Part shown: positions 3,395-38,056 of the stretch, in pieces
Numbering within the stretch: position 1 is the stretch's first letter
Layout: each line of letters begins with the position of its first letter
Assembly: GCA_965207735.1 (NCBI GenBank)
Contig: OZ242296.1
Location: 3,040,001 to 3,104,000 of the forward strand
DNA: 64,000 nt
Direction of reading: 5' to 3'
Source of the DNA: Candidatus Versatilivorator sp.
GTDB lineage: Bacteria > Acidobacteriota > Terriglobia > Versatilivoradales > Versatilivoraceae
Notes under the pieces: generated by a model
Database searches by the model: none
Seen by the model: the letters and a program-made list of their open reading frames with translations, nothing else
What the model was told of the DNA's origin: nothing
Translations under genes and position numbers: made by a program

Positions 3395-4268
3395 CTTGAG
3401 GCGTTTGCAAAATGCGGCAGCGGGATTCTTGCCGGGAATGGCCACAAAAGGCACAAAAACACAAAAAGAGCGGAACGAATCAAGAATTCGTTTTGTGCCT
3501 TTTGTGGTGAACCCGCAATTCCCACCGGGTCGCACCCGATATTGAAAAAGGCAGAACATCACGTTTGCCGGCGAATTCAAAGACGAACCACGAATGGACA
3601 CGAATAGGGATGGACCCCCTTCAATGACCAACCGCGCCCGAATGTATCTGCGATATCGTGACCTTGATATCCCGACGTCATGGGAGGGAGCCACCCGGGA
3701 GCGCGGGCGTCCCGCCCGCAACCTTATTCGTGCAAGCAGCCTGCGATCCAGGGGCATTCCCTCGAACAGTGCACCAAACCGGCCTTTGCAGGGTTCGCTA
3801 CTATGGTGCCAAGTCCTATGCGGGCGAGACGCCCGCGCTCCCGGGTGGGCGTTCTCCCATTCACTCTTGCTCCTCAAGAGAGCGTGTCGGGTTGCCGGGC
3901 CGCAGCCCTGCCGTGCAGGTCATGCGAAAGAGCCTCTTGCAATATCGGCAGTGGGACAGGTCGTTTTGCCGGCAATCGTGATGTTCTGCCTATTTCAATA
4001 GTCGGGTGCGACTTGGTGAAAAAGGGGAGTTCACCACAAAAAGCACAAAAGGCACAAAACGGATTTCGTGATTTCGAGTCTTGGCAATCCGAAGTTGATC
4101 CCCATGGCGACGGGTTGACCGGATGTATGCAGATAGCGCGGAACTTGTGCGACGGGTTCGGGAGTCAACGTCTTGCAGGCTTTCAGTGTTCTGCTCTTTT
4201 TGTGTTTTTTGTGCCTTTTGTGGCCATTTCCGGCAAAGGTCACGCTGCCGAATTTTGCAAAAGGCTCA
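3395..4268. repeat. Large imperfect inverted repeat (arms ~3395-3575 and ~3963-4268) enclosing a REP pair
   Basis: GCAAAATGCGGCAGCGGGATTCTTGCCGGGAATGGCCACAAAAGGCACAAAAACACAAAAAGAGC is mirrored at ~4190-4260; GTCGCACCCGATATTGAAAAAGGCAGAACATCACG is mirrored at ~3976-4012. Confidence 0.85.
3691..3848. repeat. Inverted pair of GGAG-type REP palindromes (REPIN-like doublet)
   Basis: CCACCCGGGAGCGCGGGCGTCCCGCCCGCA (3691-3720) and its 29/30 reverse complement at 3819-3848. Confidence 0.8.
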
Positions 4269-9584: not shown

Positions 9585-9755
9585 CTTGCCTGAACCAACC
9601 CAGTATCGCGCTGCATGCGACGGGGTGAAACGAGTGATCCACGAAGGGGCACCAAGCGTGACGGCACTGCCCCATGGCACGGGCTGCGGCCCGGCAAGCC
9701 GGCGCGTGCCCCCTTGAGGAGCAAGAGCGCTGGGAGAAGGCGCTCCCGGGGGGCT
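9585..9755 (-). repeat. Copy of the intergenic repeat family seen at 3845-3915, ending in an IS110-junction-like motif
   Basis: GGGCTGCGGCCCGGCAAGCCGGCGCGTGCCCCCTTGAGGAGCAAGAG is an imperfect reverse complement of 3863-3910; GGTTGGTTCAGGCAAG at 9600-9585. Confidence 0.7.
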
Positions 9756-15416: not shown

Positions 15417-15493
<77 letters not shown>

Positions 15494-24118: not shown

Positions 24119-24730
24119 TCAACCCCCTTTGTCTCCCGTCCAGCGGAAGGCCGCTTCCGGGTTCAGCCCCAGGTGCTGCATCACCCGGTAGAGAAACTGG
24201 TCGATGATCCCCTCGAGGGTGGTATCTCCATGGTAAAAGGAGGGAGTGGCCGAAAACACCACCGCCCCCGCCAGGGTTGCCAGACGCATGTTCTCCAGGT
24301 GGATGAGATTGAAGGGGGTGTCCCGAACCACCAGCACCAGCTTGCGTCTCTCCTTGAGCATGACATCGGCGGCGCGCTGAATCAGGTTCCGGGAGATGCC
24401 GTGGGCAATGCTGCCCAGGGTTCCCATGCTGCAGGGAACGACCGCCATGGAGTCTACCGGGTGGGATCCGCTGGCGATCTTGGCCCCGATATCGTCGTTG
24501 CTGAGCACCTCGATCTTGCGGTGATGGCTCCCCGCCAGCTTCTCGCCCAGGTTACTAAGAGTGAGGGGTCTGAGATCCAGCTCATCGTTGAGGACGCGCA
24601 GGGCGGCTCCGGAAACAACCAGGTTGATGCGGGAAACAGCCGGCTCGGCGGCCAGCAGGTTCAGCAGGCGATAGGGATAAATGGCTCCGCTGGCTCCCGT
24701 GATGGCGAGGGTGATCTCCAAGTCTTTCAT
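24119..24730 (-). CDS. ubiX: Flavin prenyltransferase UbiX
   Basis: [24 protein letters not shown] and [21 protein letters not shown] motifs. Confidence 0.95.
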
Positions 24731-25034
24731 ACCCGGTGGGTCGTGGAGTGCATGGGTCCTTCGGACCAGGGTTCCGAGACAGGATACTCGGACCTGCAAC
24801 TTCCCTTCAATGGTACATCAACTCCTGAATCGTCGGCCAGCCGCCGTTTGTCAGCGGGTCTCCGGGCACGAATCGCGGTTCGAAGGCTGCACCGGGAATC
24901 TGCTTGACTTCCGTCGATTGCTGATTTCTGATTGTCGATTGAAGAATTGCCACAAGGGACTTTGCTTCAAATCCAAAATTCGAGATCTGAAGACCTTGGC
25001 TCATCTGTCAATGTCGTTTCGACTCAAAGCGGGC

Positions 25035-26153
25035 TAGCCCGCATTTCTCACCAGGGGGCATGATCATGGCGCAGGATTTTTCCCTTCAGCGCGTGCTCGC
25101 GACCGAAGAGCGTAGCGGTCACTACGCGCGAGGGAGCATGTGCGCGCTGAAGGGAAAAAGACAAGCCAAGGCATGCCCAGCGCGGTCTGTTACCCGAAAG
25201 CCCTTCCCATGGAGCCAATCAAAGTACTGAAGATAAACTACTTGTCGTCATGGCACCAGCGGCCTGGGTAGAGTCGAGGACTGGCGCGTTGACTATAGGG
25301 TCCGGTGGCTATTCCGTCGCTTTCGCTTCGGGCCTCAGTCCGGCTCCCTTATCACGTTTCCAGTCCCCGCTCTCCGAACCGGACGTGCGGTTTTCCCGCA
25401 TCTCGGCTCTCCAGTGGGATCATGCGTCTCGCACACAGGTCCCCGCTCGCATCCGTGGACGACTCCTATGGGATTGGCACCCGTCCCCCACTCCATCCAC
25501 TTCCGCTCCCGGGTTGCCGCCAGGCCTGTTGATGCCCTGACGACGCCGTCCTCCTCCGACGACCCTTTCACTTTTGCATGTGATGCTTCCGGAGTCTCCG
25601 GCCCTTTTTTGGTCGGGGTTTCAGGCTTTCGCCACTCCCGGGACCCTTCCCCCTTCGGTCACCGCTCCTCACCTGAGGCCCCTTCCCTCCACCGGTATTA
25701 CCCGGCTTCTCCGGTACTACAGGCCTCTCCGCCACCCTGTCGGCCTAGACTGACTCTCGCGAGCTTCCGGTTCGGTGCGTGCCTCACCACCCACAGGGCT
25801 TCCCATGTTGCTGCCTTCTTCCCCTTCCATGCGTGCCAGCGCCACTACCCCGGCGGGTCCAAAGGGGTGCCCGCGTCGCTCGCTTCCCCCTCCGTCTTCG
25901 GCCTTCCCCATTTCTCAGGTGGGTCGGCCCCCGCATTGCCCGTTTCGAGGCCTGCTCGACGTTCACTCGCGTTCCGGCCCGCATGCTCGCTGAACCGCCT
26001 TAAGCGGCCCTTTGACACCAGAGGGCTTCAGACCATATCGTTACCTCCATGATCCGCCCTGGCTGCTACCAACCGGAGCGACAGTTGTTGGACGGGTTTC
26101 GCACCCGTTGGAAGAAGGCGCCTTTCCATGGCGCACTGAGAAATGCGGGCTAG
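25035..26153. mobile_element. MITE copy A (~250 bp) interrupted by a group II intron
   Basis: TIR TAGCCCGCATTTCTCACCAGG ... CCTGG|TGAGAAATGCGGGCTA; body nearly identical to 37812-38056 and 52065-52313. Confidence 0.9.
25268..26136 (-). ncRNA. ORF-less group II intron ribozyme (bacterial class E/F-like)
   Basis: 5' GTGCG; D5 GAGCCGAGATGCGGGAAAACCGCACGTCCGGTTC; D6 GAGCGGGGACTGG...CCAGTCCTCG-A-CTCTAC with bulged A; 3' AC; removing it restores the MITE exactly. Confidence 0.92.
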
Positions 26154-26174: not shown

Positions 26175-26921
26175 ATGAATGAAAAGACCCTCAGAAACCT
26201 GCTGGAGGAGATCAAGGGTGGCAAGCTCTCGGTCGACCAGGGGCTGGAGCAGTTGCGGCACCTGCCTTTCGAGGACCTGGGATTCGCCAAGATCGATCAC
26301 CACCGCTCCCTCCGCCAGGGGTTTGCCGAGGTGGTGTTCGGACAGGGCAAGACGGCGGACCAGATCGAGACCATCGTCAAGCGGATGCTTCCCCACAAGC
26401 ACAACATCCTGGTGACTCGCAGCCAGGAGGAGGTCTTCGGGCGAATCCGGTCCCTGTCTCCCAAGGCCCGCTTCCACCGGGAGTCCGGGACAATTGTGAT
26501 TCTGCAGGACGAGGAGATTCGAGGCAAGGGAACCATTCTGGTGGTTTCGGCGGGAACCGCCGACATCCCGGTGGCCCAGGAAGCGGTGGTGACCGCCCAG
26601 GCCATGGGAAATCGCGTGGAGACCCTCTACGACGTGGGGGTGGCCGGCATCCACCGCTTGCTGGACGCTCGCGAAAAGCTCCTGGCGGCTCGAGTGGTGA
26701 TCGTGGCTGCCGGCATGGAGGGAGCTCTCCCCAGCGTGGTCGGCGGACTGGTCTCGGCGCCGGTGGTGGCGGTGCCCACCAGCGTCGGATACGGCGCCAG
26801 CTTCGGCGGGGTGGCGGCCTTATTGGGAATGCTCAACAGTTGTGCCTCCAACGTGAGCGTGGTCAACATCGACAATGGGTATGGGGCGGGATTTGTGGCC
26901 AGTCTCATCAACCGTTTGTGA
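26175..26921 (+). CDS. larB: Nickel pincer cofactor biosynthesis protein LarB
   Basis: [49 protein letters not shown] and [10 protein letters not shown] motifs. Confidence 0.93.
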
Positions 26922-29046: not shown

Positions 29047-29062
29047 CCCGCATTTCTCACCG
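29043..29062. repeat. Solo terminal inverted repeat of the MITE family
   Basis: CTAGCCCGCATTTCTCACC between two convergent genes. Confidence 0.75.
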
Positions 29063-37811: not shown

Positions 37812-38056
37812 AGCCCGCATTTCTCACCAGGGGGCATGATCATGGCGCAGGATTTTTCCCTTCAGCGCGTGCTCGCGACCGAAGAGCGTAGCGGTCACTA
37901 CGCGCGAGGGAGCATGTGCGGGCTGAAGGGAAAAAGACAAGCCAGGGCATGCCCAGCGCTGTCTGTTACCCACAAGCCCTTACCATGGAGCCAATCAACG
38001 TAGTGAAGATAAACTGCTTTTCGTCATGGCACCAGCGACCTGGTGAGAAATGCGGG
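37812..38056. mobile_element. MITE copy B (uninterrupted)
   Basis: AGCCCGCATTTCTCACCAGG...CCTGGTGAGAAATGCGGG. Confidence 0.9.

Follow-up and report, generated by a model that had tools for sequence, protein, structure and literature searches.

Homing of group II introns into the ends of insertion sequences (ISs) has been described before. RmInt2 of Sinorhizobium meliloti GR4 inserts into both inverted repeats of ISRm17, and its authors reasoned that using both repeats doubles the number of targets and puts one of them on the lagging strand (PMC4615759; PMC5894124). A preference for the lagging-strand template is known for En-less introns (PMC4615759). Moreover, intron-encoded proteins (IEPs) are able to act in trans, and the ORF-less TeI3 introns of Thermosynechococcus elongatus are mobilised in this way, some of them targeting an IS (PMC2882425). 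Homing into IS inverted repeats (RmInt2) and hitch-hiking of ORF-less introns (TeI3) are therefore known already.

Here we describe an ORF-less group II intron that splits the terminal inverted repeat (TIR) of a MITE within a 64-kb stretch of a Candidatus Versatilivorator genome; the whole stretch is referred to as the window and the genome as G000. As RmInt2 is portrayed in the parts of the two papers drawn on here, it shares with this intron the residence of all copies in IS inverted repeats, at either of two opposite ends per element, a lagging-strand-template bias, an En-less reverse transcriptase (RT), recognition by EBS1, EBS2 and EBS3, and a recent burst of identical copies. RmInt2 has its own class D protein, whereas the window intron has no ORF and the C-terminal motif of class D is missing from its sister RTs. 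Likewise, RmInt2 targets ISRm17, whereas the window intron uses IS1380 ends, MITEs and lone ends. The TeI3 introns, as far as excerpts from PMC2882425 go, are similar in that ORF-less copies outnumber RT-encoding ones and rely on sister IEPs, in that families are distinguished by their EBS and in that some target another mobile element. However, the TeI introns belong to CL/IIB1 and have an En domain, and divergence among their ORF-less families is described as EBS change after one deletion (PMC2882425), whereas here one ORF-less 3′ half carries the domain 1 (D1) of three different sisters.

New here are the mosaic ORF-less introns, in which one 3′ half is combined with the targeting domains of three RT sisters, and a sister lineage that follows IS1634 ends, likewise at a depth of 13 nt. 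A literature search with most subscription journals outside its reach found no published intron in IS1380 or MITE TIRs and no 5′/3′ module swap, and the sections of PMC3073962, PMC7923331 and PMC3552965 covered contain no description of IS1380/MITE-end introns or module swapping. Our main reading, to which we give a probability of about 0.88, is that the copies arose by independent retrohoming with the En-less RT of a co-resident sister, and that the intron gained its aim by recombination with RT-encoding sisters.

Structure of the intron and its host element

The features of the locus, with positions in the window, are as follows.

25038 to 26149, plus strand: IS1380-type MITE of 243 bp, carrying the intron (1112 bp in all), from paired TIRs and lengths; its TIR is that of the 1698-bp IS1380
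25034 to 25037, plus strand: left target-site duplication (TSD) CTAG (YTAR), from the sequence and a TSD census
26150 to 26153, plus strand: right TSD CTAG, corresponding to 5′ exon positions -14 to -17, from the sequence and the A at -15
25038 to 25055, plus strand: left TIR of the MITE, 18 bp, empty
26137 to 26149, minus strand: outer 13 bp of the right TIR, forming the 5′ exon end, with IBS1 at -1 to -6/-7 and IBS2 at -10 to -14
25263 to 25267, minus strand: inner 5 bp of the right TIR, forming the 3′ exon start, its +1 C being IBS3
25268 to 26136, minus strand: ORF-less group II intron, IIE/IIF-like, 869 nt, from Rfam RF02003 and RF00029, 28 copies and the fold
25376 to 25409, minus strand: domain 5 (D5) with AGC triad and 5-nt GAAAA loop, from the Rfam match and predicted fold
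25274, minus strand: branch-point A, bulged, in a long domain 6 (D6), from the predicted fold
37814 to 38056, plus strand: MITE copy, empty
52068 to 52310, plus strand: MITE copy, empty, with G at -1 in its right end
29047 to 29059, plus strand: lone TIR core, empty

The initial annotation had described the insert as a group II intron with GTGCG...AC ends, a D5 and a D6 with a bulged A, and sequence, Rfam and fold all confirm this. On the minus strand the insert begins with GTGCG and ends with CTCTAC, in agreement with the GUGYG...AY rule and with a precise exon junction. Both Rfam group II models, the use of which had been proposed with that annotation, score above cut-off: group-II-D1D4-4 (RF02003) matches 25967-26110 with 80.8 bits (cut-off 49) and Intron_gpII (RF00029) matches 25268-25411 with 41.2 bits (cut-off 40). 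Alongside the exon junction, the D5 AGC triad, the bulged A of D6 and a covarying EBS-IBS pairing mark the insert as a group II intron, and the z-score of the whole-intron fold is -4.1 (against 20 shuffles). In the predicted fold the D5 loop is 5 nt long, the bulged branch A is separated from the intron 3′ end by six bases, and D6 is long and structured (a IIF tendency). These features, together with a covarying EBS2 and an RT without En, are likenesses to group IIE/IIF as outlined in PMC3753933 and, as class F/g1-g4, in PMC3552965; unlike that group, the window intron lacks an ORF of its own. The IIE/IIF-like label reflects the RNA fold set against the description in PMC3753933. A tblastn search of plasmids for the RT class matched unclassified ltrA only (45-54%).

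The ORF-less status also holds, the longest stop-free sense frame in the 869 nt being 107 codons, without an RT frame. With the sister RT as tblastn query, no RT remnant was found in D4 (best E 0.98), and blastn of D4 against loci L016-L091 gave no match. A remnant of the RT ORF apparent by eye in D4 was rejected, as its local score was 74 against 77 for the best shuffle and the tblastn E was ~1. Of the 24 sequencing runs listed, 20 hold part of the 64-kb stretch; seven different runs were examined, all of them contigs. The RNA runs (contigs only) contained no spliced or circular junctions, though pieces of the intron family from other strains were present, and an 869-nt skip in run X1 that could be taken for splicing is compatible with an empty MITE elsewhere. 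Judged by its sequence, the ORF-less TIR intron is a real, active-looking and well explained system.

The intron splits the right TIR of the MITE as CCTGG/TGAGAAATGCGGG, and at empty sites the exact TIR is restored. The two empty MITE copies at 37814-38056 and 52068-52310 verify this split, as first annotated. Two details of that annotation require correction. The target site is not TA, as the duplication is a 4-bp YTAR whose flanks agree in 20/21 IS copies, including the non-palindromic CTAA/TTAG. Similarly, the outer 16 bp of the TIR were said to stay intact; because the element starts with CCCGC at 25038 and the flanking CTAG is the YTAR duplication, it is 13 bp of the 18-19-bp TIR that lie outside the intron. 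These 13 nt, the TIR core CCCGCATTTCTCA, are the start of both the 19-bp TIR of a 1698-bp IS1380 element and the 18-bp TIR of the 243-bp MITE. G000 contains 157 exact copies of the core and 81 with one mismatch, against Markov-model expectations of 0.16 and 6.4, so the repetition of exact cores is not due to chance. The 64-kb window contains seven TIR sites (one mismatch or fewer), one of them occupied, which is the count originally given. The IS1380 element encodes one 455-aa transposase (NF033539, 410.6 bits against a cut-off of 180, plus PF13701). Its length, transposase, TIRs and 4-bp duplication resemble those of the IS1380 family, the difference being that the ends here also serve as a retroelement target.

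The intron-bearing MITE is located between divergent genes at 24119-24799 (minus) and 26175-26921 (plus), whose products look like a flavin prenyltransferase of the UbiX type and a protein of the LarB type, and this intergenic spot holds differing mobile repeats in different relatives. Elsewhere in the window there is an rRNA operon with two spacer tRNAs (59652-64000, minus), with further tRNAs at 15420 and 49403. Another repeated end in G000 (...GACTCCTAG) abuts the TIR in at least 8 of the 13 matches listed; it likely belongs to another element that duplicates or supplies CTAG.

Target sites and their recognition

The genome-wide tabulation of intron flanks suggested with the initial annotation recovered 28 full-length ORF-less copies in G000, with 99.66-100% identity and 22 of them identical. 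All 28 lie in the same TIR context, after TIR base 13 and with C at +1; the core is exact in 27 and has one mismatch in the other. Without exception the occupied site reads as the 4-bp TSD, CCCG(C/T) and ATTTCTCA, followed by the intron and then C. MITE right ends account for 12 sites, MITE left ends for seven, IS right ends for four, IS left ends for two and lone ends for three. Homing into a multicopy mobile-element end is thus upheld. The MITE end named as the target is indeed used, but was too narrow a definition, as the TIR of the autonomous IS1380 is equally targeted. The landing-pad idea, with the end of a multicopy element as homing site, is right but already published.

Relatives show the same preference. 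From G005, G009 and G011, 24 ORF-less-type copies were retrieved that have this EBS1 stem and whose 5′ end can be read; 22 of these are in the TIR with one mismatch or fewer and the remaining two, both in G005, are at a near-match site. A pattern search for TIR-intron junctions yielded 16 in G005, 13 in G011 and 8 in G009, with none in G004 and G008.

Three elements of the intron pair with this target.

25911 to 25917, minus strand: EBS1 loop UGAGAA(A), from covariation with exon -1 to -6
25938 to 25942, minus strand: EBS2 CGGGC, pairing with GCCCG at -14 to -10, from covariation
25845, minus strand: EBS3 G, pairing with the +1 C, from Watson-Crick pairing with +1 among relatives

Covariation was scored in 30 non-redundant related introns, out of 68 with a readable 5′ end. 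EBS1 had been correctly positioned (UGAGAAA, 25917-25911): it makes 4.73 pairs with exon -1 to -6 against 2.34 by shuffle, a value reached in 0/2000 shuffles. For EBS2 the initial annotation had tentatively named 25982-25977, which does not covary (394/2000 shuffles reach its value); instead, 25942-25938 covaries with exon ~-10 to -14 (3.73 against 2.73 pairs, 0/2000). These shuffle counts overstate significance, the relatives being non-independent, but the contrast between the two EBS2 candidates still stands. A further candidate, AUGCGGG, just 3′ of the true EBS2, was rejected: it is conserved whatever the target, and a segment complementary to it is present within D1. EBS3 and +1 form a Watson-Crick pair in 40/48 related introns and G-T in three more. 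IBS2 (GCCCG) overlaps the TSD by a single base, its first base being the last of the duplicated target. The A at -15 is present in 29/29 occupied sites and also in 113/129 exact empty sites.

RT-encoding sister introns

G000 also contains 15 related RT-encoding introns of three types, 14 with full-length RTs without stops and one broken. An RT-encoding sister with the same EBS1, which the initial annotation had recommended seeking, is present at G000:C1:5004992 inside the left TIR of an IS1380. Its protein of 456 aa scores above the TIGR04416 cut-off, contains RVT_1 and GIIM and has an intact YADD; a domain search matched no endonuclease family in it. The three RT types are 82-90% identical and all keep YADD, while the class D C-terminal motif LX3AX3PXLF[V/A]HW, in the form given in the part of PMC4615759 used here, is absent from all three. 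The nearest RT relatives are found in records titled as Candidatus Versatilivorator and as other Acidobacteriota.

The sisters occupy several other repeats. Repeat B (239 matches in G000) is the target of most of 13 RT2 introns and is also a frequent IS1380 insertion site, and its motif is found in one arm pair of the long nested inverted repeats at window positions 3397-4268 and 9628-9706. RT3 targets repeat C (20 copies in G000). Sister RT introns with a matching EBS1, UGUUAAU, are situated 13 nt inside an IS1634-family TIR (CCCATCTTTAACA; NF033559 above cut-off) at nine loci (L149, L151, L153, L028, L031, L032, L034, L037 and L057); G000 itself has ~25 IS1634-family ends, every one of them empty. 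At L155 in G009, an RT intron has an IS1634 end as 5′ exon and an IS1380 left end as 3′ exon, probably through recombination between two intron copies. Introns L067, L077 and L045, from other phyla, likewise have 5′ exons of the form CTAG-CC... and are possibly further TIR-targeting lineages.

Replication strand and mode of spread

In 25/29 occupied TIR sites the intron is on the leading-sequence strand (corresponding to the lagging-strand template), compared with 42/120 empty exact sites (Fisher p 6e-7). For this analysis dnaA (3.54 Mb) was taken as the origin of G000 and the GC-skew maximum (0.73 Mb) as its terminus, both being predicted positions; the GC-skew minimum (4.5 Mb) proved misleading as an origin. 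The skew profile contains rearranged segments and local skew was used as a check, by which 24/29 occupied sites fit. Moreover, the end used is the one on the favoured strand in 18/19 occupied MITEs. The rule extends to G009 (8/8), G005 (13/16) and G011 (11/13), 32/37 in total, with the terminus in these genomes assumed to lie opposite dnaA. Two of the four exceptions in G000 are IS right-end composites. The strand bias is the published signature of En-less retrohoming (PMC4615759).

The ages of introns and elements were compared in 55 pairs of right-end composites. On average the introns differ at 0.9 of 869 nt and the MITE cores at 6.8 of ~199 nt, indicating that the MITEs are older than the introns inside them. 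In 34 pairs the intron is identical while the MITE differs at two or more sites, and identical introns in diverged MITEs point to independent retrohoming. At an orthologous intergenic spot, the mini-element TIR of G005 contains the intron and that of G009 does not, and G002 is without the element. The intron variant 433C>T is found in one left-end and one right-end insertion.

These data bear on the suggestion, made in the initial annotation, that intron and MITE move as one DNA unit. In its wider form the intron would also move as DNA with the MITE or with IS1380, the transposase tolerating a shortened 13-bp end. Some observations are in its favour. The composites at G000:C1:5027596 and 5213340 are identical in MITE and intron with unrelated flanks, two of the four sites that depart from the strand rule are IS right-end composites, and the IS sequence does not differ between occupied and empty copies, leaving the order of events unreadable. 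There is also a slight clustering of occupied MITEs; right-end-occupied MITEs are more alike than random sets (p 0.002 with gaps counted, 0.019 with substitutions only), with p 0.06 when intact-end copies only are used. However, identical composites at new loci in random orientation would be expected, and a single pair of the 55 is identical while orientation is non-random: DNA transposition should randomise it, yet 25/29 sites obey the fork. Against co-mobility, too, are the 34 pairs with unlike MITEs and the 433C>T variant, which shows that intron variants are not bound to one MITE haplotype. One member of the identical pair has mismatched duplications (TTAG/CTAG), compatible with recombination, and the two IS exceptions are 36 kb from the predicted terminus or inside a reversed-skew segment. 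The suggestion is thus largely unsupported and we regard co-mobility as unlikely.

A second alternative is that the copies spread not by RNA homing but as MITE and IS ends underwent gene conversion or homologous recombination with each other. Mismatched duplications occur at several elements, and the mosaic introns described below are themselves evidence of recombination between repeats. Yet introns occupy three lone ends as well as left and right ends of two element bodies unrelated to each other, with only 13-18 bp shared, and conversion would leave the strand rule in four genomes without a reason; we consider it very improbable. Independent retrohoming is the reading we retain. Because 22 copies are identical and the strand rule holds, we infer from these sequence patterns that the ORF-less intron is mobilised in trans by a sister RT.

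In G011 (L135) a MITE has ORF-less introns in both TIRs, whereas elements in G000 are never filled at both ends, and in G009 (L144) a three-level nest consists of a MITE, an ORF-less intron within it and an IS1634-type element within the intron. One end of a 243-bp MITE at G000:C1:572744-572986 reads TIR-GTGCG-CCGCTGG, with CCAGG replaced by the first bases of the intron; this looks like a scar of intron loss via GCC microhomology. A short 5′ fragment of the intron is located at a TIR-like site at G000:C1:331238.

Mosaic structure of the ORF-less introns

One further feature is defined by comparison with other introns.

25268 to 25665, minus strand: 3′ module (D4-D6) common to the ORF-less introns, with an approximate boundary near intron nt 470

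When the window intron is aligned by BLAST to the RT sister of the same target, the alignment ends at nt 475. Trees (unrooted) were built for 21 introns, 10 ORF-less and 11 RT-encoding, as representatives chosen from fetched loci. The D1 tree groups them by target, whereas the D5-D6 tree splits ORF-less from RT-encoding introns with support of 100/100. Accordingly opposed constraints fail: AU tests reject monophyly of the ORF-less introns on D1 (p 3e-8) and monophyly by target on D5-D6 (p 1e-56). The D1 of the window intron is 95-97% identical to that of same-target RT introns (G000:C1:5004992 and L019). In D5-D6, ORF-less introns that differ in target share ~98% identity with one another, against ~71% with co-resident RT introns. 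Both relationships are illustrated by the ORF-less intron found in repeat C. Its D1 is 98.2% identical to the repeat C RT intron and 88.1% to the window intron, whereas its D5-D6 shows 98.7% identity with the window intron and 72.7% with the repeat C RT intron. The parent indicated by informative sites changes near columns 395-412 for three ORF-less introns, and for a fourth near column 340. Moreover, ORF-less D5-D6 is 80-83% identical to RT introns in records from other phyla, above its identity to co-resident RT introns, a further point of difference from the TeI introns.

The simplest reading of these sequences is that one ORF-less 3′ half would have been given new targeting domains by repeated recombination. 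The trees being unrooted, we infer the direction of D1 donation, from RT sister to ORF-less lineage. Alternatively, the ORF-less family may have arisen once and been re-aimed by parallel EBS point mutation, without exchange of halves, on the T. elongatus model. This is the route published for TeI3/TeI4, as set out in the part of PMC2882425 drawn on here. However, it is the whole of D1 that matches the same-target RT sister (98.2% against 87-88% across targets), and ~55-60 informative sites side with the RT sister until a sharp switch. The point-mutation model is therefore disfavoured relative to half exchange, and we think it quite improbable. We favour, as probable though well short of certain, a portable ORF-less 3′ chassis that repeatedly captures the D1 of co-resident RT sisters by recombination around D3, with EBS1 variants that track IS1380 and IS1634 ends at 13-nt depth and an EBS2 that reads the TSD/TIR junction, only inserted ends being full targets.

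In a Paracoccaceae record (L066:570-2007), two tandem 719-nt ORF-less introns are found beside an RT intron, with which they share D1 (97%) and not the last 160 nt (72%), a pattern that indicates mosaicism likewise in another phylum. In G000, a 117-nt internally deleted intron in repeat C (G000:C1:4260992-4261108) has an RT-type 5′ end and an ORF-less-type 3′ end, and a 57-nt piece of ORF-less D4 (89%) adjoins a transposase fragment (G000:C1:4917931-4917985).

Proposed mechanism and implications

Under the reading of retrohoming in trans, the spliced intron RNA would bind the sister RT, and its EBS1, EBS2 and EBS3 would pair with the TIR at -1 to -6, -10 to -14 and +1. The sister RT protein probably reads the duplicated target too (A-15). 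The RNA would then reverse-splice into the single-stranded lagging-strand template at the fork, and the inserted RNA would be copied from the nascent strand. With two opposite-facing ends per element, the end on the favoured strand would be the one hit. The ORF-less lineage probably came by its aim through recombination that fused its common 3′ half (D4-D6), within D3 or directly behind it, with the 5′ targeting halves of RT sisters that differ in target.

The locus is an unusually clean natural example of an ORF-less, trans-helped IS-end intron, with a lagging-strand rule in four genomes. Less familiar is the re-aiming of non-autonomous introns by swaps of whole 5′ halves, not by EBS point mutation. 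If true, D1-D3 and D4-D6 from lineages ~30% apart in D5-D6 would stay compatible, which would bear on ribozyme modularity, intron-protein co-evolution and targetron design. Moreover, since insertion shortens the 19-bp TIR to 13 bp, the system lends itself to testing the proposal that introns curb the spread of ISs.
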